This document shows positions 30,865-57,784 of a stretch of 64,000 nt of DNA, in pieces (positions within the stretch are counted from its first letter, which is position 1; every line of letters starts with the position of its first letter). The translations under genes and the position numbers were made by a program. The stretch is taken from the IMG/VR virus record IMGVR_UViG_3300033146_002768, positions 34,305 to 98,304 of that record, one strand, 5' to 3'. This stretch comes from a virus. Below the pieces are notes generated by a model. That model was not told the origin of the DNA and made no database searches. It saw nothing but the letters and a program-made list of their open reading frames with translations.

Positions 30865-30875
30865 ATATATATTAA
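30865..30875. promoter_or_regulatory. ATATATATTAA motif copy (extended tTATATATATTAAtata), about 40 nt upstream of the ATG at 30915
   Basis: Exact 11-mer recurring in intergenic regions. Confidence 0.4.
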
Positions 30876-30914
30876 TATACATAACATAACACAGATATTT
30901 GTAGGAAAAAAGTT

Positions 30915-31277
30915 ATGAAAAAGAAAATTGATTTTGTGACAAATAGCTCAAGTGTTTCATTTATAATCGCCACTGATAAAGAAGATACTTCATTGAAAAT
31001 TAAGTTAGAAATTGAAGTTGATTTGAGGGATTATATAGTCGCATCATGTTCTACTAAACAAGCTCTTAAAGATTATTGGCTTGATGATATGCATGGTGAT
31101 GATGAAGATGAAGAATATTTGAATTATCAATCTTTAATTGACGAAGGTAAAACTGTTCATTTTCTTGATTGTAGTGATGAAAATGAAACAACAGAAACAT
31201 TACTTTGTTATAAAGGATTAAATGATATTAAATTTCCCGATGACGTTATAGTTATGCAGGGACAAGGAGGTTATTAA
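30915..31277 (+). CDS. DF-TNSSS family acidic protein, member 6
   Basis: MKKKIDFVTNSSSVSF. Confidence 0.6.
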   Translation: MKKKIDFVTNSSSVSFIIATDKEDTSLKIKLEIEVDLRDYIVASCSTKQALKDYWLDDMHGDDEDEEYLNYQSLIDEGKTVHFLDCSDENETTETLLCYKGLNDIKFPDDVIVMQGQGGY

Positions 31278-31346
31278 ATGCACAAGTAGACTTTAAATGT
31301 TAACTGGTGAAAACAAATTATTAATTTAAAGAATGGAGAAAAAGTT

Positions 31347-32693
31347 ATGTACGAAAATGACAATGAAAATACCACATTTATGGGGTTGTCTATTAAAAAA
31401 GTTAGTTCTATTAGTGTTCTTCTGGCAATCGTGATATTTGGTCTTATCTTTATGCCTCAGCTTATTGATACGGTTGATAAAGGTACTTATCAAATTAAAC
31501 AGGCAGCAGTTTCTGGAAAGATGTCAGCAAAGATGACTCCTGGTATTTGGATGCAAATGTTTGGTGATATTGATGTATGGCCAAAAGCTCAGACTTTCTT
31601 CTTTACACATGACAATGATGTAAAGGGAGATGTTGATGCAGATAAATCAATTGAAGTAAGATTCAATGATGGTTCTATTTGTAATATATCTGGAACTGCA
31701 CGTATTTTAATGCCTACTTCTGAAGCAGCTGCTATTCATTTAGTAACTGAACTTGGGCATAGAACATATGCTGATGTTGAATCTAAACTTATTAAACCTA
31801 CTGTAAGAAATGTCTTGCGTCATACTGCTAACCTTATGAATGCAACTGAATCTTATATGACCAAACGTGGTGAGTTTATTAGATATGCAAGAGATCAGAT
31901 TACTAATGGTCTTTATGAAACTGATACTACAACCAAACAAATTAAAGATTTAGTTTCTGGTGAGATGACTTGGAAAGAAATAACTATCATCAAAATGAAA
32001 GATGGTAAACCTATTTATCAATTTAACCCACTTGCTGGTACTGATATTGGCATTAAGAACTTTGAAGTTAAAAAGTTTAAATATAAAGATAAGGTTAAAG
32101 AGCAGATTAGTAAACAACAGACTGCAAGAATGGCTGTAGCAACTGCTAAAGCTAAAGCTCAAGAAGCTGAGCAGGATAAGCTTACTATTGAAGCTCAGGG
32201 TAAAGCAAGAGTTGCAAAAGCTGAATATGCTGAGTTGGAAAAGAAAGCTATTGTAATTGTACAGGCTGAAAGAGATAAGGAAACAGCTCTTATTAAGTCT
32301 AACAAAGAAAAAGAAATGGCTGCTATATCCAAAGAAAAAGCTATTATTGAAGCAACTAAAAAGAAAGAAGTTGCTGCTCTTGATGCCAAAGCTGCTTATG
32401 AGGAAAAGAAAGCTAACATCCTAAGGGGTGATGGTGAAGCTCATAGAAAAAGAGTTGTTATGAAAGCTGATGGTGCTCTTGAAAAGAAACTTGCTGCATG
32501 GTTATCTGCTCAGGAAGTTTATGCCCGTGAGTTCGGTAAACAAAAGTGGGTTCCAAATATTCAGATGGGGACTACTGGAGATACAACTGGTGGTGGCGCT
32601 GTAAGTCAGTTCATGGATCTTTTAAGTGCTAAAGCTGCAAAAGAACTTGCTTTAGATCTTGATATGAATATGGGAAACAAAGTAACTCAATAA
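31347..32693 (+). CDS. SPFH/band-7 (flotillin/prohibitin-like) membrane protein
   Basis: N-terminal transmembrane segment VSSISVLLAIVIFGLIFMP, a central globular domain, and a long Ala/Lys/Glu-rich coiled-coil C-terminus typical of SPFH proteins. Confidence 0.5.
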   Translation: MYENDNENTTFMGLSIKKVSSISVLLAIVIFGLIFMPQLIDTVDKGTYQIKQAAVSGKMSAKMTPGIWMQMFGDIDVWPKAQTFFFTHDNDVKGDVDADKSIEVRFNDGSICNISGTARILMPTSEAAAIHLVTELGHRTYADVESKLIKPTVRNVLRHTANLMNATESYMTKRGEFIRYARDQITNGLYETDTTTKQIKDLVSGEMTWKEITIIKMKDGKPIYQFNPLAGTDIGIKNFEVKKFKYKDKVKEQISKQQTARMAVATAKAKAQEAEQDKLTIEAQGKARVAKAEYAELEKKAIVIVQAERDKETALIKSNKEKEMAAISKEKAIIEATKKKEVAALDAKAAYEEKKANILRGDGEAHRKRVVMKADGALEKKLAAWLSAQEVYAREFGKQKWVPNIQMGTTGDTTGGGAVSQFMDLLSAKAAKELALDLDMNMGNKVTQ

Positions 32694-32704
32694 ATTAAAC
32701 AATA

Positions 32705-32731
32705 ATGTCCCCATGTAGTTTGTGGGGACAT
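32705..32731 (+). other. 9-bp stem hairpin (ATGTCCCCA / TGGGGACAT) after the SPFH gene, with no clear U-tract
   Basis: Read from the sequence. Confidence 0.4.
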
Positions 32732-32750
32732 ATTACTACAGGAGAATTAT

Positions 32751-33023
32751 ATGCAATATTTTTTCATATTAGTATTAATCTTCTTCTTTTGTTTCTTCTC
32801 TTGGAAATGGTGGGGTAAAAAATTAGCTAATTATTTAGCATCTGAAACTCCTGAAAAACAAAAAGTTACATTAATCAATAAAATTGAGGCTCTTAAACAA
32901 GCTGCAGAGGAACTCAAACAAAATGATGATGAATTAAAAGTAACTAAGATGCTTGCTGAACTCCAGAAACAAATTGATGAAAAAGAAAAAGAGTTAAAAG
33001 AACTTAATAAAAATCTGAAATAG
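32751..33023 (+). CDS. small membrane protein with coiled-coil tail
   Basis: N-terminal hydrophobic FFILVLIFFFCFFSW, then a heptad-rich Lys/Glu tail. Confidence 0.4.
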   Translation: MQYFFILVLIFFFCFFSWKWWGKKLANYLASETPEKQKVTLINKIEALKQAAEELKQNDDELKVTKMLAELQKQIDEKEKELKELNKNLK

Positions 33024-33050
33024 ATTCAGATTAAAAGAAAGGATGAAATT

Positions 33051-34148
33051 ATGACAGAAACAAATTTAAATGAAATGGTAGAAGATGGTTCTGAAAACAC
33101 TGAGCAAGTAGACGTTAATGTTGAAGCTTCCGGTGATTTACAAAACGATTCTCTTGCAGACTTTGTTGATATTACACAAACAGAAGGTGATAATGTAAAT
33201 GAAGAAAATGCAACTGATACAACTCCTGCTCCTGCCAATACTCCTGCACCCAGACTTACATTTGCTGAAAGAGCAGTAGATATGGGACTCACAATTCTTG
33301 ATGAGGGTACTTATGTATATGAAGATGACTTCAGTAAAATTGCTTATAAAGTTCTGAAAACCTTGGAAGGTTCCGACATTGTTGGTGATCTTGTAATTCC
33401 TGATCTTGGTATCTTTACAAGCGGTCTTGAAGCAGATGCTGAATGGGGTTATCATAAATCAATTTCTGATTCTTATAAATTTCTCGGAAATGCAACCCTG
33501 ATTAACCAAATCAAAGAATCCATTCTTGCTGTTGGTAATGCTGATCTTGAAGAAACACGTTTTATGTCAGGTAACTTATGTGAAATTCGTCATGAGATCA
33601 TTGTTAAAAATGGTCATGATATTCCAGAAATTGGATCAGTCTTTCCAATGTTGAATATTAAAAATACTTATAATGGTTCCGGCGCAGCAGCAATTACTTT
33701 TGGTATGTCCATTGCAGCCGCTGATGGTGTTACAAGTTCCATTTCTGATGAAGTGTTTGGACAGATCAAACAAATTCATCTTGAAGGTGCTAATGCCGAA
33801 TTGACAGCAAAGTTCGGAGATTTTATTACAATCTTCGATGATAATATTCAGGACGTAGTTGCCAGCAACTTTGCAAATGAGGTAACTCCGGAAGAAATGA
33901 TGTCACTTCTTAAAAGAATCCAGACTAAAGCTGGTAAACAAAGAAGCGTTGCCTTTTCAAAAGAAATTTCCTATGAAGAAGGTCAGGCAATTAATATGAA
34001 TCATTGGCAACTTTTCCTTGCATTAACCAGGTTCACCTCTGTTGAAAGAAATATCAACCAGAAGAAAGCCATGGAAAGTGTTGTTGAAAGTGTGTTGGTT
34101 CTACCTGCAGAAATGATTAGCTCACTGAAAGCTATAAACGGCAGGTAA
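33051..34148 (+). CDS. hypothetical protein with a highly acidic N-terminal region
   Basis: 365-aa ORF. AAAGGATGA RBS. Confidence 0.5.
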   Translation: MTETNLNEMVEDGSENTEQVDVNVEASGDLQNDSLADFVDITQTEGDNVNEENATDTTPAPANTPAPRLTFAERAVDMGLTILDEGTYVYEDDFSKIAYKVLKTLEGSDIVGDLVIPDLGIFTSGLEADAEWGYHKSISDSYKFLGNATLINQIKESILAVGNADLEETRFMSGNLCEIRHEIIVKNGHDIPEIGSVFPMLNIKNTYNGSGAAAITFGMSIAAADGVTSSISDEVFGQIKQIHLEGANAELTAKFGDFITIFDDNIQDVVASNFANEVTPEEMMSLLKRIQTKAGKQRSVAFSKEISYEEGQAINMNHWQLFLALTRFTSVERNINQKKAMESVVESVLVLPAEMISSLKAINGR

Positions 34149-34178
34149 ATGTTGTAACCATTGTATTTAGCCGCACAG

Positions 34179-34216
34179 AAAACTCCCAGGTCTTAATTGA
34201 TCTGGGAGTTTTTTTT
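34179..34216 (+). terminator. Rho-independent terminator: 11-bp stem AAAACTCCCAG / CTGGGAGTTTT followed by a T8 run
   Basis: Read from the sequence. Confidence 0.8.
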
Positions 34217-34262
34217 GTTGTCATTTTTTTGGAACAAACTATAAACTTATAGAGGAGAAATT

Positions 34263-35531
34263 ATGGCGACTGAACCAGACATCCTTAGACCTTCAAGAAG
34301 TTATGAGATTAATTTAAGGATAAAGGGAGAAAATTATTCTAACGATATAACAAGGGTTAGACTTTCATCATCATTAGCGACTGGGTATCAAATAGTTTCA
34401 TTAACAATTAATATAACACCTCAATCAATTTTACTAAACAAATTATATGGACAAGATTCTATTGAACTTGTTATAAAAAGATTGGATGAAAGTGAAGTTG
34501 TTTCAGAAACAATGGTATTCGATTTAATGATATTAAATTCAGAATTTGAGATTCCTGTGTCGGATTTAATAACAACAGATCAACAAATGGATAGAACAAG
34601 TTTTGAATTAGTAACTGTAACAAGAACACCTTTTGAAATTATGACAACCATGGTGAGTGCTGTGTTTGGTCCAACTCCAACAAAAACTGTTTGGACAGCT
34701 CCAAAAACTATTAAAGAAATGATTGAAACTATAATAGATGAACAAATAACAGCACCATTACAACTTAAATATGATACTGTCAATGAAAATCTTGACCAAA
34801 TAAGACAAAGTTGTATTCCTCCTACTACATTATATCAAGCAATTAAATACTTAGATAGAAATTATGGTTTATATAACGGAGTCCCAGCAGTATTTTGTCA
34901 ATATGATAATACATTACAAATAATGAATTTATCTTCAAGAATTAAAAAAGGTTATACTATATTTGTTGAACATTTGAATAATCAAACTAAACAAGAAGAT
35001 ATTGATAAAGCAACTCAAGATAAAAAATATTTTTATACATATGATAATTTATATACTAATTATGTAGGCAATTCAAAATTTGGAGTAATAGGTCAAACAT
35101 TAAAACATGTAGTATTACCTTCTGATAAATTGTCTCATGTAATAGTTCAAAACTTACAAGATGTATGTGCATCTTATGGATTAATTTCAGATACTAAAGA
35201 TAAAAAACCTCATGTTAATACATCAGTAACAAATAGAATTAAATATTACATTGATAACAATGGTTATGATATATCAGAAGTATTCGCTAATTCAAAAATA
35301 GCTAAACAAATTTCTGATATTTCAAGATTAAGTTTTAGTATTGAAAGAAATTTGCCTATTGAGGATTTAATAAAAATTGGAGTTTGTGTTAAAATAAAAA
35401 CATTAACTCAAGAGCATATTGATATAAGTGGAAAGTATATTTTGTTTTCTAGTGATTTAGTTTGGAATAAACAAGGTGATTGGCAAACTGTTGCTAAATT
35501 AGAATTAATTAGAACTAATAAAACTGTATAA
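34263..35531 (+). CDS. hypothetical protein (422 aa), possibly structural
   Basis: AGAGGAGA RBS. Located just upstream of the terminase region. Confidence 0.5.
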   Translation: MATEPDILRPSRSYEINLRIKGENYSNDITRVRLSSSLATGYQIVSLTINITPQSILLNKLYGQDSIELVIKRLDESEVVSETMVFDLMILNSEFEIPVSDLITTDQQMDRTSFELVTVTRTPFEIMTTMVSAVFGPTPTKTVWTAPKTIKEMIETIIDEQITAPLQLKYDTVNENLDQIRQSCIPPTTLYQAIKYLDRNYGLYNGVPAVFCQYDNTLQIMNLSSRIKKGYTIFVEHLNNQTKQEDIDKATQDKKYFYTYDNLYTNYVGNSKFGVIGQTLKHVVLPSDKLSHVIVQNLQDVCASYGLISDTKDKKPHVNTSVTNRIKYYIDNNGYDISEVFANSKIAKQISDISRLSFSIERNLPIEDLIKIGVCVKIKTLTQEHIDISGKYILFSSDLVWNKQGDWQTVAKLELIRTNKTV

Positions 35532-35921
35532 AAAACATACAATAAAAATCTCCCGAAGAAGACCCCATCTACCTGAAAACTAGCAGAATGTTTTTTGGGG
35601 GTTTATAATTAGGTTAAAAGGTTAATTTTAAAATCCAGGTTGTAATTTCTACATTTGTTGAGGTCGAATACATTTGAAATGTTCCTTTTTAAGAGAACGT
35701 TTTTCTGTAGCTCAGCCATCTCCGAAATAACCAGAAACCTGTAGCTTTGCGTGGACCTAAGTCCGTGCCCTTTAGAACGCTAATTTAATAGCCGAAAAGA
35801 CTAAACACAAAACAATAAAACAAGATTCTATAATTTTAATGTGTCAAATTAAAATTTTTATTTTAATATACACCCAATGTATATACTAAATATTGTACGA
35901 GAATCTCTTGCTTTAGGTAAA

Positions 35922-35932
35922 TTAATATATAT
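35922..35932. promoter_or_regulatory. Inverted copy of the ATATATATTAA motif (plus strand TTAATATATAT) in the 456-bp non-coding region upstream of terL
   Basis: Exact reverse complement of the 11-mer. Confidence 0.3.
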
Positions 35933-35987
35933 AATTGTACATTCTATCCAAGACAACATTTAGAACAAATAAAAAAGGGAGAATAGT

Positions 35988-37625
35988 ATGAATGCAATTA
36001 TGAATAAACAACAAAAGGTACAACAATCAGCTCAACGTTATGTACAAGAGTGGATGAAATGTAAAAATTCATTTGATTATTTTTGTTCTAAATATATATT
36101 AATAGAAATGCCTGGTGGAGATATACCATTAAATCCATATAGACCACAATCAGAACTTATTAAAGCTATAAATAAAAAACATTATGTATTAGTATTAAAA
36201 TCAAGACAGATCGGTATATCAACTATTATTCAAGCTTATTCTGCTTGGTTGGCAACATTCTTTGATAATGTTGTTATAGGGATTGTTTCAAAAGATGGTA
36301 AGGAAGCAACCGACTTTGCAAGATTCATTAGAGGAATGATAGAGAAGTTACCTAAATGGATGGGTGCAATATTTGATAAAAAGACTGAGCAATCATTTAT
36401 TTTAACTAATGGTGCAAAAGTATATGTTTCACCTGTTAATCCTAATGCTCCAGAGAAAACCCTTCGTGGTAAGGCAATTACATTCTTAGTAATAGATGAG
36501 GCAGCTTTTATTAAATTTCTTGATACTGCTTGGACGTCAATGATTCCTGCATTATCTACTAATCAGATGCATGCAAGAAAAGCTAATGTTCCATATGGTA
36601 CTGTAGTATTATCAACACCAAATAAAACAGTTGGTCCTGGTAAATGGTTCTATGAAAAATATCAAAGAGCAGTTGGTGGTGATGATATATTTACAGAATT
36701 TACAATACATTGGAGAGATGTAAAAGAATTATCTGATGATCCAGGTTGGTATGATACTCAATGTCAACTATTTGAAAATGATCCAAATAAAATTCAACAG
36801 GAGTTAGAACTTAAATTCCTTGCTACAACTGGGTCTTTTTATAATGATCAAGTAACTCAAATATTACAAGAGCTTGATACTGATCCAATAGAAAGAATTA
36901 AATTATTTAATGGCGAATTTTGGAGATTTAAACATGCTATTCCAAACACTCATTATATAATTGGAGTTGATACTGCACCTGAACATGGTGAGGATAAGTC
37001 AGCCATAACAATATGGGACTATCAACATTTAGAACAAGTGGCTGAATATCAAGGAAAATGTAGAGTTGTTGATTTTGTTAAAGTTGTTAAGGTTGCTGCT
37101 AGTCAATATCCTGGGACTATAGTAGTAGAGTCAAATTCATATGGTAATCATGTAGTTGAAGAAATGATGCGAAGTGAATTTTCTCATATGATGTATAAAG
37201 AATCAAGAGGTAATACAAAGGTTCCTGGTCTTCAAACAACTGCTAAAACAAGACCATTAATCATTGATGCTTTATATTCATTAGTAACAGAGTTTCCAGA
37301 AATTGTTAAATCAAAAAGATTAGTCCTTGAATTAATAGGACTTATTAGTAAACCGAGTGGAAGAGTAGAAGCTGATATAGGATGTCATGATGATATTGCA
37401 TTATCAGCGGGATTAGCTTTCTATGTTCATAAATATGATCCTGTATTAATGATGCAAAATAATACAGTAGCAAGCAATTTATTCACAGATGTTATGGCAT
37501 TAAATGATTATGGACCAGAAGTTATTAATGATACTTCTATTATGAGGCATGTCAAAGATAATTTAAGTAAACAAAAAGGTGTAATAAATACAATGGATTT
37601 CTTTTTTGGAGCTGATAGAGGATAA
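35988..37625 (+). CDS. terL: terminase large subunit
   Basis: Walker A-like VLVLKSRQIGISTII. Walker B FLVIDEAAF. C-terminal RNase-H-like nuclease region (IGVDTAPEHGEDKSAITIWD...CHDDIALS). Confidence 0.85.
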   Translation: MNAIMNKQQKVQQSAQRYVQEWMKCKNSFDYFCSKYILIEMPGGDIPLNPYRPQSELIKAINKKHYVLVLKSRQIGISTIIQAYSAWLATFFDNVVIGIVSKDGKEATDFARFIRGMIEKLPKWMGAIFDKKTEQSFILTNGAKVYVSPVNPNAPEKTLRGKAITFLVIDEAAFIKFLDTAWTSMIPALSTNQMHARKANVPYGTVVLSTPNKTVGPGKWFYEKYQRAVGGDDIFTEFTIHWRDVKELSDDPGWYDTQCQLFENDPNKIQQELELKFLATTGSFYNDQVTQILQELDTDPIERIKLFNGEFWRFKHAIPNTHYIIGVDTAPEHGEDKSAITIWDYQHLEQVAEYQGKCRVVDFVKVVKVAASQYPGTIVVESNSYGNHVVEEMMRSEFSHMMYKESRGNTKVPGLQTTAKTRPLIIDALYSLVTEFPEIVKSKRLVLELIGLISKPSGRVEADIGCHDDIALSAGLAFYVHKYDPVLMMQNNTVASNLFTDVMALNDYGPEVINDTSIMRHVKDNLSKQKGVINTMDFFFGADRG

Positions 37626-37628
37626 AAT

Positions 37629-38579: not shown

Positions 38580-41500
38580 ATGGCTGATAAAAGGTTAACT
38601 AAAAATGAAGCTGCTAGACAGATGGCTTCTGCAGACAAAAGAGTAAAAGGTATTAGTAGTATAGCTAATAGCGCTGTTAAAAGAGCTAAAACTTTAGATC
38701 TTAAAAAACAATATGGTACTACTAGTGGTAATAGACAAGCTGTAACGTCTGTTGATAAAGCTTTAAATAGTTTATCTAAGACTACTGAAGCATTAGCTAA
38801 AGGTGTTAAGCAAATTACTGTTGAAACTGCTAGAGGGATTAAACATATTACTACTTCTGGTGCACAAGCAATGGCAGAATATTCTAAAGCTATTGGGGAA
38901 GATATTCATATTAATAGACAAAATTTCATGGTAACAACTATAGGTAAATTTACACCGTTAGTAGGATATGCTGTTGCTAAGATGATGGAAACATCTGTAT
39001 TTAGAAATATGATTGATAAAATGAAACGAGGACTAAACAACGCATTAAATTCAGTTACTTCTAGATTTAAAAAATTAGCAATGCAAGGCTGGGAAAAAGG
39101 TAAAGAGTTTTGGAATTCTATGATGGATAGGATTTCAGGTAAGCGTGGAGCAGTAAAAACTCGAATGTCTAATGCTCGTAAAGCTAAAAAAGATAAAAGA
39201 TATTTCACTAAAGAAGCAGCTATGAAAGAGGCATTAGCGGATGCAAAGGTTGCACAAGCTGCTAGAAGAGCATCTAAAACAAGTGATATTGAAAAACAAG
39301 TTCCTCATATGGCGTCTGGTGGTTATGTACAAAAAGAAGGTTTAGCTAAGGTCCATGCGGCTGAAGTAGTACAACCAGTTGATAAAATTGTTGAGACTAT
39401 TGTTAAGACTGTAAATGAAAGACTTGATGCTAAAGAAAAGAAACAAAAAGATGGATTCTTCTCAGGATCTATGTTTGAGAAAAAGAAAGATCAAGACTTC
39501 TTTGGATTTAATAAAGTTGGTGAAAGTATTAAGAATGCTTTCCAGATTATGCAACGTAAGAATTTACAACTAGAAACAAGAGTTATGAAAAGAGATAAGA
39601 AACAAAGAACTGGTCTTATCAAAAGTTTCTTTAATGCATATTCAGAAGAAGCTAAGCAAGAAGAACTTCCATTAATGGAAAGACAAGTAAGAGCAACACT
39701 TGAATTGAAAAATACAATCTCAGGTGAAAACAAAACTGCTCAAGCTGCTTGGGAAAAGATGTTATACGAACATCCGTTCTTCCATGGTTTAACTTTAGTT
39801 GGTAAAGGTTTAAATAAAGCAATTGCATCTCCATTTTCTTTTATGTTTAGAAGACGTGGTAAATATGTAAATAATTTAAAGCGTGGCGGTACAGCATTTG
39901 AAAAAATGGTTGATATTCAAACTCAAACATATACTGGAATGATGGAGAAGTTTGATGATATTATCGCTAATACATATATAACAGCTCAAGCTACAGCAAC
40001 AACAGTTGATCCAAAAGCTAAACCTGATATTCGTAAAGCTCCTAGTCAATCTGGCTGGTCAGTTACAGGAATGATATATAAAGGGTTAGTTCAAAAACCT
40101 GCAGCAGCTATTGGTTGGGCAGCAAAAAAGTTAGGTTTTAAAAATAAACATCTAACTAATGAGAGAACATTAGGAGAAGAAGCTAAAAGCTTTGGTCGTG
40201 GTGCTAAATCAATTGGGGAAAGTACCCTGAGAGGCATCGGTAAAGGATCTAAGAAACTTTGGGATTATAATAAAAGAGCATTAATGGAAACAGAATCTCA
40301 AACTTATAATAGAAAATTATTAGAAGAAGCGACAAGAGTAAGAAAACAACAAGAACTAGTAGATTCAATTGTAAAAAGTCATGAGAGATCAAAAGAACAA
40401 TTAGCAAATGTACATGATAAATTGAATATGGCAGATAATTTAAAAGCAGGTATGTCTCCTAAAGATGCTGCTAATATAATGAGAAATAGAAAAGATAAAC
40501 GTAAAGGAAAAAGTAATAAAGTTGGTGAAAGTAATTTTGATGCTGCTGTTAGAGGAAGTGATGAATCTATAACAAAATCAAATAAAAAATTCTGGACTGA
40601 TAAACATAAAAAGAATACTGTACCATTTTCATCTGGAGGAAAAGATAGAAGTGGAGCTAAAACTGAAAAAGGTCAATTAGGTCAATTAGTTGATCTTGGT
40701 AAGAAAGAATTAACAACAAGTATTAAAGGTAATAAAATTGCACAAAGTACTGCTAAAGGATTATCTAAAATGGGCGGATTCTTTATGAGAATTTTTACAT
40801 TTTTAGGTAGTAGTCTTAGTGGTATAGCAACAATGTTAGGACCTGTACTTGCTACAATAATTGGTGGAGCATTAGCAGCAGCAGGTGGAGCCGCTATTGG
40901 TACAGCTATAAATAAATATATTGTTAGTCCTATATCTAAAAAGATGTTTGATAAACAAGATAAAAAAAATAGAAAAGCTGGCGGAACAGTTGATAAACAA
41001 GTAACTAGTGGCTATGATGCTTTAAAGCAATTTAGAGCAGGAGAAGGCACTAAAGAAGCAGCTCAAAAAGGTATCAATAAAGCTACATTGTTTGGTGGTA
41101 TCGGAAAACAAATGGAATCAGCAACTAACAATTATATTGGATGGAATGCTAGAGCTAAAAATAATTGGGGGTTAATTAAAGCTGGGTCTGCTGAATATTT
41201 AGAAGAAAATATTGGTGAGTATGGACCGTATGGTTGGGATCAAATTGATAAGTTAAGAACAAAATGGTCAGCAACTTATAAACAAGGAAAAGCTGGAAGA
41301 AATTGGCATGGTATGGGTAGAAAAAGAGAAATGAATTTTCTCAAGTATCTAAAAGCTCATGGCAAACCAATGACATCAGAACAAACAGCAGCTCAAGAAG
41401 CTAAACATTTTGGTGGTAAACATACCCAAATACAAACTGCAACTACCACTATTAGAAGTAACGCTTCAAAAACACCATCACCAGTAACATCGTCAATAAA

Positions 41501-42908
41501 CCCTGTTGGTAATAGAAGTAGTGCTTCAAAAGTTCCAACATCAACAGCAACAACAAAAGAAAAATTTGCTAATTTCCAAGCTACTGCAGCAACATATTTA
41601 CCTTTAGTAAATCAATTTGCTGGGAATACAACATCTGGTATGTTATTAGCTCAATTTGCTCAAAGTAAATTACAAGATGATCCTCATAAATTATATAATG
41701 CAGCTAAGGCAATTCAATCAGTAGGTAAATCTAACTGGATAAAATTTAGTAAAGATCCTGATACATATAAAGCTGCTGAAATGATTGTAAGTTCTAAAAA
41801 TGAATTGTTAAAAGGAAAAGGTTATATAACAGAAAAATATGATAGTTTATCTGGTAAAGTTAAAAAGGGATGGAATAATGCCAAGAAAAGTGTTGAAGAT
41901 GCTGGCGGCATTAAATCTAAAACAAGAGATATAGTAACTAACTTACCTGGTACATTATCGACTATGACTAGTAATGCTCAAATTTCTGCTGAAAAATTAT
42001 ACTATGATCCTAGAACTCAAAAGATAATTAAAGATATTAATGAAAAGGATGCAAAACAATTAATAGCAGAAGGAAAATTATTAGCTGGTACATCTGTAGA
42101 AAATTTAAAAATAAAATATGAAAAATGGGCAGAAAAAAATAATGTTGAAGAAAAAGTTGAATCACTTAAATCAAAAGCTCAAGGTTTATATGCTAAAGGA
42201 TTAGGAATAGCTGAAGATGTTAAAAATAATGCACCTGGTATGATATCAACAATGGCAAGTAATGTAATGGTTACTTTTGAAAAAATGGCTCAAGCATTTG
42301 GTGAAGATCCTCACCAGTTCTATTTAGATACTAAAGAAAAATTATGGGGTGGTATAACTTCAGTTAAAGAGTTTACTAAATCTTCTTATCATACATTACA
42401 TAATATGTATATAATGCAGAAATCTCAATTAGAGTGGGAAATAAGAAAGTATCAAGGTGATTTACCTTATGAAGTACCGCCAGAAGAAAAACCATTAGCT
42501 GCATCAATATCAGGAGCTATTGGTGGAGGATTAAGATTCCCAGGTCCTAAAGGAAAAGCTACAACATTCCAAGTAACTGGACATGGTGGAGAAAAATTAA
42601 TTATCGGTCCTTCCGAAGCTCGTGATATGGGAAATATGAGTAAAATGTCGTCTGCAGCTGTTGCTAAAATAAAATCAAGAGAAGATATATTTAAAGCAAT
42701 GTTAAGTCATGATATGGTTGAAGGTATAAAAGGAGTTAAAGATTCTGTTGACTCTGGAGCTAAATCAACCGCTAATGTATTCACGTCTAGTATAAATAGT
42801 ACTAATTCAGTAAATACTTCTAATACTAATCAAGGTGGCGGTGGACAAGCAATACCAAGATCTGTTGATCCACACCTAATAGAAATTTTAACTTGTGGTG
42901 TAACATAA
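38580..42908 (+). CDS. tape measure protein-like (1442 aa)
   Basis: Very long Lys/Ala-rich helical protein with a central hydrophobic/Gly-rich block (FMRIFTFLGSSLSGIATMLGPVLATIIGGALAAAGGAAIG). No enzymatic motifs. Confidence 0.5.
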   Translation: MADKRLTKNEAARQMASADKRVKGISSIANSAVKRAKTLDLKKQYGTTSGNRQAVTSVDKALNSLSKTTEALAKGVKQITVETARGIKHITTSGAQAMAEYSKAIGEDIHINRQNFMVTTIGKFTPLVGYAVAKMMETSVFRNMIDKMKRGLNNALNSVTSRFKKLAMQGWEKGKEFWNSMMDRISGKRGAVKTRMSNARKAKKDKRYFTKEAAMKEALADAKVAQAARRASKTSDIEKQVPHMASGGYVQKEGLAKVHAAEVVQPVDKIVETIVKTVNERLDAKEKKQKDGFFSGSMFEKKKDQDFFGFNKVGESIKNAFQIMQRKNLQLETRVMKRDKKQRTGLIKSFFNAYSEEAKQEELPLMERQVRATLELKNTISGENKTAQAAWEKMLYEHPFFHGLTLVGKGLNKAIASPFSFMFRRRGKYVNNLKRGGTAFEKMVDIQTQTYTGMMEKFDDIIANTYITAQATATTVDPKAKPDIRKAPSQSGWSVTGMIYKGLVQKPAAAIGWAAKKLGFKNKHLTNERTLGEEAKSFGRGAKSIGESTLRGIGKGSKKLWDYNKRALMETESQTYNRKLLEEATRVRKQQELVDSIVKSHERSKEQLANVHDKLNMADNLKAGMSPKDAANIMRNRKDKRKGKSNKVGESNFDAAVRGSDESITKSNKKFWTDKHKKNTVPFSSGGKDRSGAKTEKGQLGQLVDLGKKELTTSIKGNKIAQSTAKGLSKMGGFFMRIFTFLGSSLSGIATMLGPVLATIIGGALAAAGGAAIGTAINKYIVSPISKKMFDKQDKKNRKAGGTVDKQVTSGYDALKQFRAGEGTKEAAQKGINKATLFGGIGKQMESATNNYIGWNARAKNNWGLIKAGSAEYLEENIGEYGPYGWDQIDKLRTKWSATYKQGKAGRNWHGMGRKREMNFLKYLKAHGKPMTSEQTAAQEAKHFGGKHTQIQTATTTIRSNASKTPSPVTSSINPVGNRSSASKVPTSTATTKEKFANFQATAATYLPLVNQFAGNTTSGMLLAQFAQSKLQDDPHKLYNAAKAIQSVGKSNWIKFSKDPDTYKAAEMIVSSKNELLKGKGYITEKYDSLSGKVKKGWNNAKKSVEDAGGIKSKTRDIVTNLPGTLSTMTSNAQISAEKLYYDPRTQKIIKDINEKDAKQLIAEGKLLAGTSVENLKIKYEKWAEKNNVEEKVESLKSKAQGLYAKGLGIAEDVKNNAPGMISTMASNVMVTFEKMAQAFGEDPHQFYLDTKEKLWGGITSVKEFTKSSYHTLHNMYIMQKSQLEWEIRKYQGDLPYEVPPEEKPLAASISGAIGGGLRFPGPKGKATTFQVTGHGGEKLIIGPSEARDMGNMSKMSSAAVAKIKSREDIFKAMLSHDMVEGIKGVKDSVDSGAKSTANVFTSSINSTNSVNTSNTNQGGGGQAIPRSVDPHLIEILTCGVT

Positions 42909-51216: not shown

Positions 51217-51217
51217 T

Positions 51218-51526: not shown

Positions 51527-51607
51527 GGTTATATTTTCTCCGTTACTATGAAAAAAAATAGTCGAACTTTAATTAAAAAGTCCGACTATTTTATTATTTA
51601 ACTATCT

Positions 51608-52504
51608 TTATTTCTTTTTAGCTTTTTTAATTTTAGCTTGAGCTTTAGCCATACCTTTCTCAGCAGCAGCTTTAGCTTCTGGAGTCTTAGCAGCAGCTCG
51701 TTTTGCTTTCCAAGCTTTATATGCTTTATAAAGACCATAAATACCAGCAGCGCCAAGAGCAGCAGCACCAGCATATTTTCCGCCTTGAATAGCTTTTCCC
51801 TTTAATGCTTCTCTTTTTTTCATTTTTTCTTTATAAGCAGCAGTATTTGTTCTATCAGTTTGATTCATTTTAAAAAGTTGACCTTGAGGAGATTTTTGCC
51901 AATCTTTCTTAGCATTATCAGCAGATATTCCAGCAAGTTGTTTTTTACTGTCTTGTCTTCTCATTTTTTCTCTATACTCTGGAGAACTATTTAAATTAGA
52001 AGTATGTTGAGCTTTTTTCATACTTTTTGATGTTTTTTTCCAGCTAGCAACTTCAGCACTTTGAGCACGTTTAGCTTTATTTTTCTTTCTTGCATCATCT
52101 TCCCAAGAACCTTCATTAAGTGCATCAGGATCTAATTGCCCATTTTCTCTTGCAAACTCAAGAATAGGAGCAGCAGAAGAAAGACCTAAATCTGAAACAG
52201 GTCCCATTTCAAATATCAATGTATTGATATCTGCTGGTCTACAAGTTTCTCCAATAATATCTAAATTTTCTACTATACCTCTTCTAAACATTTCCCAAAC
52301 TGCTAACTCATTTCCAGAGTCAAATTTTTGTTCAGGCATTTCACCTAAAGTGATAAGGTGCATTACTTCATAATCAGAAGCTTCGTTCTGAATATAACTT
52401 GTTAATTCTTGTTTGCTATCAACATCTGAATCATTGATTGATTCACATACTTGATTTCTTGCTATTTTTAGAAAAAACAAAGTTTCTAGTGTTGGATGTA
52501 ACAT
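51608..52504 (-). CDS. Lys/Ala-rich basic-tailed protein (histone H1-like tail), paralog of 50470-51216
   Basis: YIQNEASDY, FEMGP. C-terminal AKRAAAKTPEAKAAAEKGMAKAQAKIKKAKKK. Confidence 0.5.
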   Translation of the reverse strand: MLHPTLETLFFLKIARNQVCESINDSDVDSKQELTSYIQNEASDYEVMHLITLGEMPEQKFDSGNELAVWEMFRRGIVENLDIIGETCRPADINTLIFEMGPVSDLGLSSAAPILEFARENGQLDPDALNEGSWEDDARKKNKAKRAQSAEVASWKKTSKSMKKAQHTSNLNSSPEYREKMRRQDSKKQLAGISADNAKKDWQKSPQGQLFKMNQTDRTNTAAYKEKMKKREALKGKAIQGGKYAGAAALGAAGIYGLYKAYKAWKAKRAAAKTPEAKAAAEKGMAKAQAKIKKAKKK

Positions 52505-52539
52505 AATATTCCTCCTGTTTGTATTTACTTTTTTTTATA

Positions 52540-53268
52540 TTATTTATTTGATTTACCGTATTGACTAATTACACCATCTTTTCCATTAGCTGGATTAATA
52601 TGAGTTTTATGGAATGATAGACATTTATCATAAACCCATTTTTCATGCCATGCATAATCAACATTAAATTCTATTTCTATATCTAATTTTCCTATACTTT
52701 CTACATCACTTGCATGTAAATCAGCAGGATCTTTAGTTGGAAATACACCATCGTAACAAGCATAATATTCAATAGTCTTGGCATCTGGAGCAGTTGTCCA
52801 GTAATATAATAATGATGAATAACTAGATTTTGAATAACCTTTACCACCATCTGTATCTTCTTGATTAGAAGCTCCAGTTCTATAATCTCGCATCATTTTT
52901 ACCCAAGCATGCATCATACTTGTAATAGGCAATCCTTGCATTTCAGTAAATTTTACAGATACTGAATTACCATAATCAAGATTACCAGGTACTGCCCATT
53001 TTACTCCACCGAGTCCAGTGAACTCAATTTTATTAAGTGTTCCGCCAGGAGGCGTTACACCTGTGCATGTTGCAGCTAAAACCTTTTGTCTTTGACCTAA
53101 TTCTAATGAACCACTTGCTTGATCATCTAAGTTAAAAGTAGGCAATTTATCAAACCATATAAAATGATATCCAGTTATATAAGGATCGGCAACACCAGTA
53201 GTGTGTCCTCCCCAACGTCTTGATAACATATTATCTGCTGTTTTTATAAAAGCATTCTTTAAAGCCAT
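52540..53268 (-). CDS. hypothetical structural protein
   Basis: 242-aa ORF with strong RBS GGAGGAATAAAT. Confidence 0.5.
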   Translation of the reverse strand: MALKNAFIKTADNMLSRRWGGHTTGVADPYITGYHFIWFDKLPTFNLDDQASGSLELGQRQKVLAATCTGVTPPGGTLNKIEFTGLGGVKWAVPGNLDYGNSVSVKFTEMQGLPITSMMHAWVKMMRDYRTGASNQEDTDGGKGYSKSSYSSLLYYWTTAPDAKTIEYYACYDGVFPTKDPADLHASDVESIGKLDIEIEFNVDYAWHEKWVYDKCLSFHKTHINPANGKDGVISQYGKSNK

Positions 53269-53385
53269 ATTTATTCCTCCGTGCTAATATTTCTTTTATA
53301 AGATTTTAAATCCTTTTAAGGATCTTGAAAGTTTTCATTATATCCAAATTTTTATTCATTCTTATACCTTCAAACTATGATCCCG

Positions 53386-53396
53386 ATATATATTAA
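53386..53396. promoter_or_regulatory. ATATATATTAA motif copy in the divergent intergenic region 53269-53513
   Basis: Exact 11-mer. Confidence 0.4.
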
Positions 53397-53454
53397 GTTT
53401 ATATTTTGTTCTAAATAAAATGTTAATTAGTCTTCCATTGTAACTTGTTTTGTT

Positions 53455-53465
53455 ATATATATTAA
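53455..53465. promoter_or_regulatory. ATATATATTAA motif copy (extended tTATATATATTAAttag), about 48 nt upstream of the ATG at 53514
   Basis: Exact 11-mer. Confidence 0.4.
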
Positions 53466-53513
53466 TTAGTAGTTAAAGGTGGATTATTATAAACTTTTTA
53501 TGAGAGGTGGGTT

Positions 53514-54494
53514 ATGAAAAAATTAAAGGGCATTGAAAAACTTGGAGAACATATGAATAGTTTTCCAAAATCAAGCAGTCCTTTTGGCAAAGGTGTCAAG
53601 GAGTTTATTCAAACAGAAGAAAAACTTGACGTAATACAAACTTATAATGAAAACATAAAATCAGGTCATGTGTATAGACATCAAAAAGTTAATTTTGTCA
53701 ATACACCAACAGAAACTAAAACATTTATGCCTAAGGAAGTATGGAGGATTAATAATATGAAAGAATTTATGTTTGTTGCAGAATGTCGTAAACGTGGATT
53801 AGCAGATGTTGATGGACAGCTAATCATCAAAGGTTCAATAACTACTACAGTTAGACATATGATAATAATATGTTTATCTGATTTGCATCGTGTGTTTCTT
53901 ATGATGAATAATAAAATTAAACCAAAGAATACCATGCGTAGTGTTGAAGGTGGGTTCTTTTTTAGAGTTGGTGATCTAGTCAATTTTATATCATATCATT
54001 TTCCAGATGATCTTGCCCTCATTAAAAAGGCTAACAAATCTGACATTCTTAAAAGTATTCATAAGAATATTGAAATGAATCAAGTTCGGAAAAGGAAGCC
54101 TCTTGGTATATTTAAAGTAGTTCCTGTAGGTGGTCTAAATGAATACTGGATGGATAAGGTTATATCATTATTTACACCGGAACAACTTGAATTAATTTTA
54201 AGTAATTCTTTAAAAAGCCCTCATTATACAAAGGTTCAGTATAATCAAATGATTAAATCTCTTGGATTAACTTTCCAGGGTCCGATTACTCAAAAGATTA
54301 ACCCTGAAGAACCAAAAACTCCATCTCATGATGATAGCGCTCTTGAAAATAGAGTTGTTGATAGAGTGGTCAAAGTTATGTTGGCAGCTAAAGCAAATAT
54401 CAAAACCATTGATATCAATGCTTTCATAGATAACATGCCTGCTGGTGATAGCGCAGAAATTTCAGTAAAGTATACAAAAGCCTCTGGTGAATAG
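53514..54494 (+). CDS. hypothetical protein (326 aa)
   Basis: GAGAGGTGG RBS. Confidence 0.5.
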   Translation: MKKLKGIEKLGEHMNSFPKSSSPFGKGVKEFIQTEEKLDVIQTYNENIKSGHVYRHQKVNFVNTPTETKTFMPKEVWRINNMKEFMFVAECRKRGLADVDGQLIIKGSITTTVRHMIIICLSDLHRVFLMMNNKIKPKNTMRSVEGGFFFRVGDLVNFISYHFPDDLALIKKANKSDILKSIHKNIEMNQVRKRKPLGIFKVVPVGGLNEYWMDKVISLFTPEQLELILSNSLKSPHYTKVQYNQMIKSLGLTFQGPITQKINPEEPKTPSHDDSALENRVVDRVVKVMLAAKANIKTIDINAFIDNMPAGDSAEISVKYTKASGE

Positions 54495-54513
54495 TCCACC
54501 TTGACGCCGGGCG

Positions 54514-54561
54514 ATACTCCCACATCATTGATTAATTTCTTTGATATGGGAGTATTTTTTT
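54514..54561 (+). terminator. Rho-independent terminator: 9-bp stem ATACTCCCA / TGGGAGTAT, long structured loop, T7 run
   Basis: Read from the sequence. Confidence 0.65.
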
Positions 54562-54565
54562 GTCG

Positions 54566-54763
54566 CTATTTTGCTTTGTCGTTTGAAATCGAGAAAGAAC
54601 GGAAATCTTTTAGTTGATTTGCAATAGCCATACTGAGTTTTCTAGCCTTTAAAGCTTTTGTTTTGCTTCCACGACCTTCTTTACCACCCTCAGCCATTTC
54701 AACAAATTCTTCAAATGCTTCTCTCAAAGTTTCTACAGATTCATTATACTCTGGTAAACTCAT
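54566..54763 (-). CDS. small basic protein
   Basis: 65-aa ORF. AAGGAGAT RBS. Confidence 0.4.
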   Translation of the reverse strand: MSLPEYNESVETLREAFEEFVEMAEGGKEGRGSKTKALKARKLSMAIANQLKDFRSFSISNDKAK

Positions 54764-54905
54764 GATAATCTCCTTTATTGTTTTATTATAATATCTACAA
54801 TACTTATAGATTTAATATATGTTCTTATATAAATACTATATCAGCATGTATACGGAAAAAACAGAGAATAGAAGACTTTAACATATTCTATTCCCTGCTT
54901 GTTAC

Positions 54906-56888
54906 TTATTTAATAAAGAAATTTAAACTAATTTTTTCTGCAACTCTTGTAGGTTCAAGAGTAATATTTACATGGAAAGTTTTAGTTTTAATCTCATATG
55001 CTGTTGCACCAACATCGACACTAAAGTTATATAACCCTCTTCTTGCTTTAATATCATCTAAGAATGCAACAATTCCGCCAGATACTTGAGACCAAGTAAC
55101 AGCATCATTTTGTTCGAAGATAAAATATCTACAGTATTGTTCTAATGCACGTTTACAATAAAGAACAAGTCTTACAATATTTAAATCTTGAAGTGCACTT
55201 GGTTTAACCTGAGTTGTTAATTGACCCCAGTTTGTATATCCTGGATTAAATTTAACAATTGGGTTAAGTTGTTTGAGATACATTTGATCTCTTTGACCAA
55301 GTCTTGGATTATATCTTAACTCTTTAATAGTATCAATTGAAGCTCTATTGAAACCAGCAGCAGCAAACCAAACTTCAGCTACATTATCATTTCTAGGTAA
55401 TAGATATGACATATGAAATACTGGTGATACCCAAATATCTTGACCTGTAAATGAATCATATACTTTATTATATTCTTCATATAGTGCACAGAAATAATTA
55501 TTAAATACATGAACATCATTACGTTTAGTCATTGAAGCATTATATGTTGAATTATCTCCATTATCCAGAATAGCTACACAATCACGTCTTGTTTGGCATA
55601 ATGTTGAAATACTAGTTTTAACATCAGATGGATAACCACAATCAAATACTAATGTAAAATAGATGTTTTCTTGGTCAAGTAAATCATCGACCATACTTAA
55701 TCCATCAATTTTACTTGTTAATTGACCAAGATAACCTTGAGATAAAATCTGAGTAGCAATAGTAGTATTTAAACCACCACTAGAATCAATAAGACTTCCA
55801 TCGCTACCTTTCTTCAGTGGAACAGGATCAGCAGATGCAAATGCTGTTGCTACAGAAGTAAAAGCTTTTCTGATAGTATATGTAATTTCACCAGAAGTGT
55901 CAAATAATGCAGTATCTCCGATCCAATTTTGAGCACCGCCCATAATTCTATCGTTATAAATTTCAATTTCATCATCATCTGCTCCAACTGCACCTAACCA
56001 ACCTTGAAGTTTATTACCTCTTTGGTCAATAAGCTCTACACAATAAGTGTAAGGATAAGTTGAACCTGCCCAATCAGAAAAATCCTGTTTGGTATCAGTT
56101 AACATAGCAGAACCAGCAATAATAGAAGCTGATACAGTACCGATTTCTTTATCATATGTTTTGATTAATGTGTTAAAACCTTCTGACATAATTTCATCGC
56201 CATCAGTAGTCATCTCACATCGTAATACACTTGAGTAGTTATTTAAGATATACTGAATCCAAATTGAATCTCCAGTACTATCTTTAACATTAGGATCAAA
56301 TGAAATCTCAAATGATTCAATTATAACTTCTGAACCATCAGATTGTTTTTCATATACATCTAATACATAAATACCATCAAGGATTGGATTAGCATGTGCT
56401 ATTAATCTAATACTTAATGCATTATAATATTCTCCCCTGCCAATTGGGTATAGAACACATAGAGGGAATGTTGTTCCTGTTGGAGCTAATTGAGTTCTAA
56501 TTTCAGATACTGAATTAATGTTTGTTGAATTTATATATTCATATGAAACAGTTGCTGTTGAATCAACATCAGCTAAATCAACATTAATTTTAATATTTGA
56601 ATAAGAAGCATCGTCAGGCATACATCTTATGAAGAATAATGAACCTGATTCTCCAAGATAGTTATATGCACAATAAGGACCTTGACCATAACTTTTACCA
56701 TATTCAGTAATGTTTGGTTCTCCATATTCAGAAATAAATTCCGCTCTGCCCCCAATAAATTTTAATACGTTGTCTTCACCCTTTTTAGTAATACCACAAA
56801 TTAGTCCGATAGTACTTGGAACAGCAGCAACATAGCTGCTTAAATCTGTAATTGTAGTATATACACCTGGTGATATTGGACTTGCCAT
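54906..56888 (-). CDS. tail sheath protein
   Basis: N-terminus MASPISPGVYTTITDLSSYVAAVPSTIGLICGITKKGEDNVLKFIGGRAEFISEYG matches the conserved sheath N-terminus (SPGVY..E.DLS...ST.G.VG...KGP...I.S..EF...FG). Size 660 aa. Confidence 0.75.
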   Translation of the reverse strand: MASPISPGVYTTITDLSSYVAAVPSTIGLICGITKKGEDNVLKFIGGRAEFISEYGEPNITEYGKSYGQGPYCAYNYLGESGSLFFIRCMPDDASYSNIKINVDLADVDSTATVSYEYINSTNINSVSEIRTQLAPTGTTFPLCVLYPIGRGEYYNALSIRLIAHANPILDGIYVLDVYEKQSDGSEVIIESFEISFDPNVKDSTGDSIWIQYILNNYSSVLRCEMTTDGDEIMSEGFNTLIKTYDKEIGTVSASIIAGSAMLTDTKQDFSDWAGSTYPYTYCVELIDQRGNKLQGWLGAVGADDDEIEIYNDRIMGGAQNWIGDTALFDTSGEITYTIRKAFTSVATAFASADPVPLKKGSDGSLIDSSGGLNTTIATQILSQGYLGQLTSKIDGLSMVDDLLDQENIYFTLVFDCGYPSDVKTSISTLCQTRRDCVAILDNGDNSTYNASMTKRNDVHVFNNYFCALYEEYNKVYDSFTGQDIWVSPVFHMSYLLPRNDNVAEVWFAAAGFNRASIDTIKELRYNPRLGQRDQMYLKQLNPIVKFNPGYTNWGQLTTQVKPSALQDLNIVRLVLYCKRALEQYCRYFIFEQNDAVTWSQVSGGIVAFLDDIKARRGLYNFSVDVGATAYEIKTKTFHVNITLEPTRVAEKISLNFFIK

Positions 56889-57011
56889 AATGTTTCCTCC
56901 CTTAAACGGATTCTTGTTAAATGAAATAATCTTTACAATACTTTCTTCAGCTCTACAACTTTATGAAAATCCTTTGGAGGTATCTCTAATTAACCTGTAT
57001 AAATATTTTTA

Positions 57012-57689
57012 TTAGCAGTATAAGTACCAGTAAAATACTAATTGTCTTGAATTATCTTTAACAATTGTTGGGAATGTTACAATACTAAAAATATTAAATG
57101 GACCTGTATGTTCGCCTGCATCACTATTTGCTGTAAATAATGCTGCTTCATTTAAATTATATCCATTTACATCTTCAATTGAGATTGTTGTGGTAACTTT
57201 TAGTATTAGCCAATTATTGTTATTAGATGTATCTTGTTGAAATTCTACCATATCAAACGGATGTTTATAATATGCGCCTGCTCTATAGTCGGCGTAGTTA
57301 GTATCCGTTGCATTCATTGGGACTTCATTTGATAACCCTGTCATTGTATTAACCGGAACATTTGGATTTAATGGATCTCCTATTGGAGTACCACCATCAC
57401 CTAGTCCAAACCAAGATAAAAATTCATCTTCGTTTGCTACAATGTTTGGGTTTTCTACATTACAAAGTCTTGAAGCGATCCATTCACGACCAGCGAAAAG
57501 AACTAAGTTACTCTTACCAACTTTTTTCTTCTCACCAAACTCGTCAACAGAATAAATTTCAACATAACCCTGTGGTTTTCTTGATTTGCTACCTATACTA
57601 TTAACTGTATCTGTTATGCATTTGTCACCATAGTTTTCGTCTACACTTATAACTATAGTTTCTGGTTCTTTAATAATTTTATCTTCCAT
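57012..57689 (-). CDS. hypothetical virion protein
   Basis: 225-aa ORF upstream of the sheath gene in the same transcriptional direction. Confidence 0.45.
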   Translation of the reverse strand: MEDKIIKEPETIVISVDENYGDKCITDTVNSIGSKSRKPQGYVEIYSVDEFGEKKKVGKSNLVLFAGREWIASRLCNVENPNIVANEDEFLSWFGLGDGGTPIGDPLNPNVPVNTMTGLSNEVPMNATDTNYADYRAGAYYKHPFDMVEFQQDTSNNNNWLILKVTTTISIEDVNGYNLNEAALFTANSDAGEHTGPFNIFSIVTFPTIVKDNSRQLVFYWYLYC

Positions 57690-57773
57690 TACGTAACTCC
57701 TTTATGATCATTACGAATCTACTAGAACTTTTTATTTTGTTCTTATTTTTGGTTATGATTAGCAATAAGTTCT

Positions 57774-57784
57774 ATATATATTAA
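57774..57784. promoter_or_regulatory. ATATATATTAA motif copy (extended cTATATATATTAAtaaa) in the divergent intergenic region 57690-57828, about 44 nt upstream of the ATG at 57829
   Basis: Exact 11-mer. Confidence 0.4.

Follow-up and report, generated by a model that had tools for sequence, protein, structure and literature searches.

The 64,000-nucleotide (nt) stretch of viral DNA analysed here, from now on referred to as the window, spans positions 34,305 to 98,304 of the IMG/VR virus record IMGVR_UViG_3300033146_002768. It has about 30% G+C, belongs to a large contractile-tailed phage and encodes a large terminase, a tail sheath, a tube-like protein and further baseplate and virion proteins as well as an RNA polymerase (RNAP) (Table 1). 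An 11-mer that recurs in the spacers between its genes, ATATATATTAA, had been proposed as a candidate promoter element in an earlier inspection of the letters alone, referred to below as the sequence-only reading. Based on the window and its relatives, we consider it likely that ATATATATTAA forms the central part of a 14-base promoter element, strongly conserved in giant phages of a large uncultured family with RNAP genes of their own and referred to here as class 1 or the TA motif. A second recurrent sequence containing GAACA, referred to as class 2, precedes structural genes and often lies back-to-back with class 1.

Recurrence of the 11-mer in the window and its relatives

An exact search of both strands of the window recovered every position previously listed for ATATATATTAA (30865, 53386, 53455 and 57774 on the plus strand and 35922 on the minus strand) together with a sixth copy at 36092 on the plus strand that had been overlooked. 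The sixth copy lies inside the terminase gene, so that the proposed confinement to intergenic DNA holds for five of the six copies and fails for this one. The sequence-only reading had expected about one copy by chance. Dinucleotide shuffles of the window yield 0.60 +/- 0.90 copies over both strands, and six copies were reached in none of 100 such shuffles. On a crude gene map, gaps of at least 30 nt add up to 2,616 nt, or 4% of the window, and contain five copies. Markov models of order 0-3 trained on this intergenic DNA of the window (71.7% AT) predict only 0.04-0.16 copies there (Poisson P <= 8e-7).

The longer 13-mer TATATATATTAAT, reported in three copies, is found exactly at 30864, 53454 and 57773 on the plus strand, and a fourth copy occupies positions 35921-35933 of the minus strand. 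From the end of the 13-mer to the ATG codons at 30915, 53514 and 57829 the distances are 38, 47 and 43 nt. The gaps 53269-53513, with two copies, and 57690-57828, with one, are divergent as described. The gaps 30663-30914 and 35532-35987 are co-directional rather than divergent.

The comparison set consisted of the window plus relatives L001-L061, together 639 kb, of which 7.4% is non-coding. The exact 12-mer TATATATATTAA has 51 matches in this set and 47 of them are non-coding. With these 47 counts it is the commonest A/T-only 12-mer in the non-coding DNA of the family, where the next unrelated word reaches 10 and 12-mers of the same composition average 1.0. An IMG/VR scan for the 14-mer found, among the matches listed, further family sites following the same grammar and also copies in unrelated AT-rich viral contigs. 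These contigs would fit a reading in which all copies arose by chance from the TA-rich, low-complexity sequence of AT-rich spacers, a reading that best explains the copies at 53386 and 36092 (see below), but the enrichment lies one to two orders of magnitude above any composition model and is accompanied by positional conservation. For the four canonical sites (30864, 53454 and 57773 on the plus strand and 35933 on the minus strand) the chance reading is already refuted, and as a general account its probability is vanishingly small. The recurrent 11-mer is therefore confirmed as a genuine signal, far above chance.

Consensus, orientation and position of the class-1 element

The functional unit exceeds the 11-mer and consists of an A-rich tract, CTATATATATTAAT and then wwn-Y-R. 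If position 1 is set to the first T of TATATATATTAA, so that TATATATATTAAT spans positions 1-13, the consensus of 41 distinct contexts is A-rich from -15 to -9, has C at 0 followed by TATATATATTAAT, w w n, Y17, R18 and A21. Outside the 12-mer, these bases are found at Y17 and R18 in 40/41 contexts each, at T13 in 39/41, at A-11 in 35/41 and at C0 in 31/41. There is almost no variation at 14 positions among phages with 45-85% identical proteins. The logo of these 41 contexts contains no -35-like or TTGACA hexamer and no TG-extended -10. A weight matrix (PWM) built from the family sites was used to score the window copies.

The element and the gene that it points at share a strand, with a median of 48.5 nt (interquartile range 43-52) between the end of the motif and the start codon and a Shine-Dalgarno sequence in between, whereas the gene on the other side lies anywhere from 22 to 243 nt away. 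Class-1 sites occupy 28/37 divergent gaps, 13/170 co-directional gaps and 2/46 convergent gaps, and several seemingly wrong-way sites precede small open reading frames (ORFs) that gene calling had overlooked. At orthologues of the virion-protein gene 57012-57689, the TA motif is found only where the upstream neighbour is divergent, 40-50 nt before the start codon of that neighbour. Genes downstream of class 1 encode a helicase, radical-SAM proteins, a PilZ protein and many small unknowns and vary between relatives; no structural gene was found among them in the window or its relatives. The element thus occurs non-randomly, in strict orientation and at a fixed distance from the start codon, is conserved in about 40 diverged contexts and co-occurs with divergent or inserted genes. 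The proposal of a promoter pointing at the downstream plus-strand genes is supported in both function and orientation by this comparative evidence, namely the enrichment, the tight start-codon distance, the tie to divergent or inserted genes and the conservation upstream of diverged orthologues.

Positions 17-18 of the three plus-strand sites in the window are T or C followed by A, which leads to predicted starts at A30881, A53471 and A57790 and to leaders of 34, 43 and 39 nt, respectively. The site at 30864 heads the unit 30915-34148, and L001 and L002 retain a block around it, TATATATATTAATATACATAA, upstream of their gene-30915 orthologues, although the proteins share only 46-55% identity. 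The site at 57773 heads a helicase/unknown/radical-SAM unit (57829-61761), and class-1 motifs precede divergent genes at the equivalent spot in L009, L010, L012, L013, L018, L019, L020, L030 and others. The site at 53454 heads the single gene 53514-54494, which encodes 326 amino acids, shows no match to any protein family and represents an insertion between late genes that includes its own class-1 site and terminator (region 53514-54565). Nine relatives without this gene are also without the TA motif and have retained both the class-2 motif and the tube-like gene's long leader.

In T4-type phages, promoter-early stem-loop (PeSL) units have been proposed to shuffle genes. Likewise, the TA motif might mainly be a recombination or boundary sequence of mobile accessory cassettes, with promoter activity being secondary: the genes that follow it vary by phage while it and the late genes alongside are kept, and the inserted gene 53514-54494 lies between the motif and a hairpin terminator. 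However, a fixed start distance of 43-52 nt, strict orientation and the Y-R pair are what a promoter needs, and the motif is also found before conserved genes such as the L018 helicase and the gene-30915 orthologues. We regard a primary role in recombination as very unlikely.

The remaining exact copies differ from the canonical plus-strand sites. The copy at 53386 falls below the PWM threshold, having G at positions 1 and 13 and no Y-R pair, and relatives carry ATATATATCGAGAT or ATATATTCAGGATCAT at the equivalent spot as part of the late leader, without the motif; it is probably not a promoter. The copy at 36092, also below the threshold, is a coding coincidence, with flanks that vary among aligned relatives as coding constraint predicts.

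On the minus strand, the site at 35933 has C and C at positions 17-18 instead of Y and R, and faces a gene-poor gap of 456 nt (35532-35987). It is exact in L001 and L008 and present as a variant with 1-2 mismatches at the equivalent spot in L002 and L007. L003, L005 and L006 have a gap of only 35-52 nt and no such motif, so that site and gap co-occur. In L008, the site precedes a Shine-Dalgarno sequence, an ORF of about 35 amino acids and a hairpin/terminator. The 35933 motif may drive expression of a small RNA or peptide from the gap region 35532-35920; for an RNA gene, covariation is weak and the terminator of the window is non-significant despite a conserved block. This block of about 45 nt, GCTCAGCCATC...AGAAACCTG...CTTTGCGT, is kept in L001 and L002 without a conserved ORF. 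Minus-strand signals of a hairpin plus T-run are seen in the corresponding gap of L001, L002 and L007 and are weak in the window.

Several features adjoin the site at 30864. A long stable hairpin (30776-30838, -26 kcal/mol, z = -3.8) and a good sigma-70-like match, TTGCAA-18-TATAAT (30815-30844), are located just upstream of it, and a stretch of about 180 nt that includes the hairpin is missing from L001 and L002. Five or six small paralogous proteins with the common N-terminus MKxKQDFITNSSS are encoded at 27146-31277, and the gene that the site points at (30915-31277) is the last member of this family.

A second motif upstream of structural genes

Aligning the six 11-mer copies brought out a second recurrent sequence, TTTGTTCTAAAT (reverse complement ATTTAGAACAAA). 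The logo of this class-2 motif is T-w-AGAACAAA-w-w-A-w-AAA (TwAGAACAAAwwAwAAA), with ACYAA upstream. It always aims at the following gene, with 61 forward and 0 reverse occurrences in co-directional gaps. Upstream of the terminase gene, TAGAACAAA is invariant in 9/9 aligned relatives. For the virion-protein gene 57012-57689, AAGAACAAAATAwAAAG is found about 45 nt before the start codon of the orthologues in about 45 relatives, the protein being 43-76% identical; in the window, this class-2 motif (57728-57762) is back-to-back with the class-1 site at 57773, 28 nt apart. The motif at 53397-53431 is likewise back-to-back with the class-1 site at 53454 and is followed by a leader of about 130 nt. 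Among the weaker matches, 54810-54844 forms a repeat, D11, with 62723-62760. Preceding structural genes as it does, class 2 is probably a late promoter class. Within the leader of the tube-like gene (53269-53400, minus strand), blocks such as ATATATATCGRGATCAT and AAAGGATTTTAAA are kept across the nine relatives, and this 5' leader may be regulatory.

The two motifs lie back-to-back in 23/37 divergent gaps, with class 1 located 25-40 nt upstream of class 2. Class 1 could then be an operator or activator site for the adjacent divergent late (GAACA) promoter and not itself a promoter. Against this, 61 co-directional gaps contain class 2 without class 1, as does the gap before the 52540 gene in all nine relatives, class 1 is found without class 2 at 30864 and at many sites in relatives, and the spacing to class 2 varies whereas the spacing to the gene pointed at is fixed. 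An operator role is accordingly held to be highly improbable.

A service of the TA motif to the late genes on its reverse strand had also been suspected, since TTAATATATAT precedes ATTTAGAACAAA upstream of the terminase gene. This candidate was rejected because the TA motif is absent where the neighbour is co-directional and tracks the divergent gene.

Table 1 Class-1 and class-2 elements, further 11-mer copies, terminator-like hairpins and principal genes of the window
Feature	Position	Strand	Details
Class-1 element	30849-30884	+	Core TATATATATTAAT at 30864-30876; PWM 27.4
Class-1 element	53439-53474	+	Core at 53454-53466; PWM 22.1
Class-1 element	57758-57793	+	Core at 57773-57785; PWM 28.7
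Class-1-like element	35913-35948	-	Core from 35933 down to 35921; PWM 21.9
Exact 11-mer copy	53386-53396	+	Inside conserved 5' leader of minus-strand late gene 52540-53268
Exact 11-mer copy	36092-36102	+	In terminase gene 35988-37625, codons K-Y-I-L-I
Hairpin plus T-run, intrinsic-terminator-like	34172-34224	+	-26.9 kcal/mol, z = -6.5; closes the 30864 unit
Hairpin plus T7 run	54508-54562	+	-21 kcal/mol, z = -7.2; closes the 53454 unit
Hairpin, then T8 run	61766-61822	+	-21.9 kcal/mol, z = -5.4; closes the 57773 unit
Class-2 motif ATTTAGAACAAATAAAAAAG	35943-35977 (motif at 35961-35969)	+	19 nt before terminase ATG; PWM 25.6
Class-2 motif AATAAGAACAAAATAAAAAG	57728-57762 (57736-57744)	-	Before virion-protein gene 57012-57689; PWM 29.9
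Class-2 motif ATTTAGAACAAAATATAAAC	53397-53431 (53405-53413)	-	Before tube-like gene 52540-53268; PWM 24.3; kept in nine relatives
Weaker class-2 match TGGAACAAACTATAAAC	34212-34246 (34230-34238)	+	Before gene 34263-35531; PWM 11.6; directly after terminator 34172-34224
Weaker class-2 match TATAAGAACATATATTAAAT	54810-54844 (54825-54835)	-	Before gene 54566-54763; PWM 15.2
Weaker class-2 match GTATAAGAACATATTATAAAT	62723-62757 (62737-62747)	-	Before gene 61830-62660; PWM 14.3
Large terminase	35988-37625
Tube-like protein	52540-53268	-
Tail sheath	54906-56888
RNA polymerase	10987-16818	+	beta' 10987-13707 (906 amino acids), beta 13732-16818 (1028 amino acids), both unsplit

Comparison with known phage promoters

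AR9 early promoters, AAATATATATTAT-(6N)-G+1, are read by the virion RNAP (PMC5312081). They have the 10-mer ATATATATTA in common with class 1, and both are without a -35, near-invariant over about 13 nt and located in divergent gaps opposite virion-gene promoters. The spacing from the core to the conserved purine is similar, 7 nt here and 8 nt in AR9. The two differ in that class 1 begins with C-T and ends with AAT whereas the AR9 motif begins with A-A and ends with AT; for the present phage, the analysis gave no sign of a virion RNAP or of uracil DNA. AR9 late promoters follow the pattern AACA-(6N)-T(A/G), and early and late promoters oppose each other in divergent gaps by virion-protein genes (PMC5312081). 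The AACA is shared with class 2, both being located close upstream of structural genes without a -35, but the bases 6 nt after AACA are mostly A-A in class 2 rather than T-R and the flank T-w-A-G is conserved as well. T4 late promoters are TATAAATA, and the A/T-rich, TAwAAA-like stretch after AACA in class 2 may be comparable.

Early promoters of phiKZ and 201phi2-1 carry TATATTAC, and those of OBP and N1M2 carry KATATTATY (PMC7058600). Early promoters of this kind have been reviewed as AT-rich, highly conserved stretches of about 10 nt centred near -10 (PMC7598289), and the leaders of phiKZ are mostly 31-40 nt long (PMC8244752). Class 1 resembles them in its AT-rich TATATTA core, predicted here to be centred near -10, in the A/T-rich sequence upstream, in predicted leaders of about 30-45 nt and in being bioinformatically findable before early operons. 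It differs by a longer invariant block and by a 3' end of AAT instead of C. The structural genes are related only remotely, the sheath encoded here being only 26-30% identical to those of PaBG, phiR1-37 and AR9. While the kind of promoter is known, the phage-specific early-type consensus in an uncharacterised phage family is new.

A promoter of the Bacteroidetes type (TAnnTTTG) was considered and rejected, given the strong Shine-Dalgarno sequences and the misfit of the pattern.

The encoded RNA polymerase and its relatives

The RNAP of the window contains Pfam Rpb1 domains 1-5 and Rpb2 domains 3, 6 and 7. Its PDB matches to bacterial beta' and beta have E = 1e-101 and 1e-86, compared with only 2e-22 for the non-virion RNAP (nvRNAP) of AR9. 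Within beta', residues 179-448 give the best alignment, to positions 237-516 of E. coli beta' and at near-equal length. This span includes the sigma-binding clamp helices, which makes a sigma-like factor possible. In jumbo phages surveyed in 2021 (PMC7824862), split RNAPs were recorded for phiKZ-like phages and sigma factors for other groups, and the unsplit bacterial-type pair falls outside these categories.

IMG/VR contains 299 relatives of this RNAP, and many uncultured relatives are found there on contigs of up to 277 kb. A near-identity search of both motif regions against GenBank phages gave no match, so that these include no close, annotated relative, and a search for the terminase in bacterial genomes gave no match either. 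The best protein matches are 25-30% identical, and the best full-length sheath matches come from the phiKZ-related phages PaBG, phiR1-37, AR9 and PBS1. In a close relative, the 10 kb further upstream of the RNAP block consist of tightly packed co-directional genes with neither motif class. Rfam and tRNA scans of the window identified no RNA genes, and the 1442-amino-acid protein encoded at 38580-42908 has no Pfam, PHROG or PDB sequence match.

Proposed function and the enzyme that may read class 1

We propose that the class-1 element would work in one orientation as an AT-rich, easily melted segment covering about -18 to -5, with transcription starting at the conserved purine 5 nt after the motif and giving 34-43-nt leaders with a Shine-Dalgarno sequence. 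Each canonical copy in the window would head a short, self-contained, non-structural unit ending in a hairpin and T-run. Such units are found in or beside the late structural cluster, usually back-to-back with a class-2 motif that would drive the structural genes. Because the genes driven are non-structural and variable between relatives, class 1 would belong to an early or middle rather than a late temporal class.

The most likely reader of class 1 appears to be phage-specified machinery, either a virion-delivered RNAP or the encoded beta'/beta together with a phage specificity factor, and one or both promoter classes may be read by the encoded RNAP. A phage-specific reader is favoured by the lack of a -35 or TG extension, the failure of a sigma-70 scan to find the sites, the 14 near-invariant positions and the likeness to AR9 and phiKZ promoters. 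Recognition by the host's housekeeping holoenzyme seems less probable.

In many phages the early genes are transcribed by the host RNAP, and class 1 could be an ordinary host sigma-70/sigma-A early promoter, with TATATT or TATTAA as the -10 and the upstream A/T tract replacing the -35/UP, so that the phage RNAP would read only other promoters, for example the GAACA class. As to its fit with the sigma-70 consensus (TTGACA-17-TATAAT), the logo shows no TG extension and, apart from a weak TTwAAA, nothing like a -35 hexamer, a consensus scan misses all three plus-strand sites, and its calls are not enriched in the region. Moreover, host promoters are degenerate, whereas 14 positions are nearly invariant here, and the core matches promoters that a virion RNAP recognises without the host enzyme (PMC5312081). 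We judge host recognition to be unlikely, if well worth considering.

Several observations weigh against class 1 as a promoter read by phage-specified machinery, and some of them favour the host enzyme. Given a start at position 18, both TATATT (positions 5-10) and TATTAA (7-12) are suitably spaced from the conserved Y-R to serve as a -10, and a weak TTwAAA sits 16 nt upstream of TATTAA in the logo. The only RNAP seen is of the unsplit bacterial type, whereas AR9 and phiKZ have split enzymes, virion and non-virion. Neither a second RNAP nor a sigma factor nor a gp226/gp68-like factor was found in the window and 2.3 Mb of related loci, which comprise just the surroundings of the RNAP, terminase and sheath genes in genomes of about 200-280 kb. 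The RNAP gene block itself has no class-1 or class-2 site over more than 40 kb of co-directional genes, so that another enzyme or promoter class must act first. Downstream of the 35933 copy, no clear gene or terminator is present in the window, where the terminator signal is weak and not significant. The census is regional rather than genome-wide, and its sites are gathered around the sheath and terminase genes, many of them being orthologous and not independent. Finally, the start site, the temporal class and the reading enzyme are inferred.

A further possibility is that both AR9-like grammars, early and late, are read without a canonical sigma by the encoded enzyme or by a copy packaged in the virion. 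We put this forward tentatively and consider it rather unlikely. If true, the lineage would link bacterial RNAP to the phiKZ-type RNAPs, and promoter specificity would have been conserved across the transition between them. In any case, the presence of AR9/phiKZ-like promoters beside an unsplit bacterial-like RNAP raises the question of how promoter recognition evolved in the multisubunit RNAPs of phages. To specialists, the existence of a promoter of this kind is expected rather than surprising. For a widespread uncultured family, the two promoter classes, the predicted starts and the unit boundaries add up to a sequence-based transcription map, from which early genes, late genes and inserted accessory cassettes can be annotated from sequence alone.

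Further features of the window

What appears to be a ubiquitin-like conjugation set is encoded at 3303-10159, immediately upstream of the RNAP genes. It includes weak matches to an E2-like domain (3303-5879) and a JAB-like domain (5812-7005), two ThiF/E1-like proteins (7018-7698 and 9260-10159) and, at 7730-8689, a protein with ThiS/TGS ubiquitin-like repeats whose gene has an internal direct repeat of 300 nt at a spacing of 480 nt. A tandem array of three small paralogous genes at 21586-22382 encodes CxxC DnaJ-type zinc-finger repeats. Repair and modification genes, located at 413-1561, 16819-18365, 23864-24997, 26049-27092 and 60997-61761, comprise three radical-SAM proteins, a FolE2 GTP cyclohydrolase, a polynucleotide-kinase-like ATPase and an RtcB RNA ligase, and this cluster could indicate base modification or tRNA repair. 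The window opens with homing-endonuclease-like genes at 32-376 and 1539-2522, which have NUMOD3 and GIY-YIG domains.

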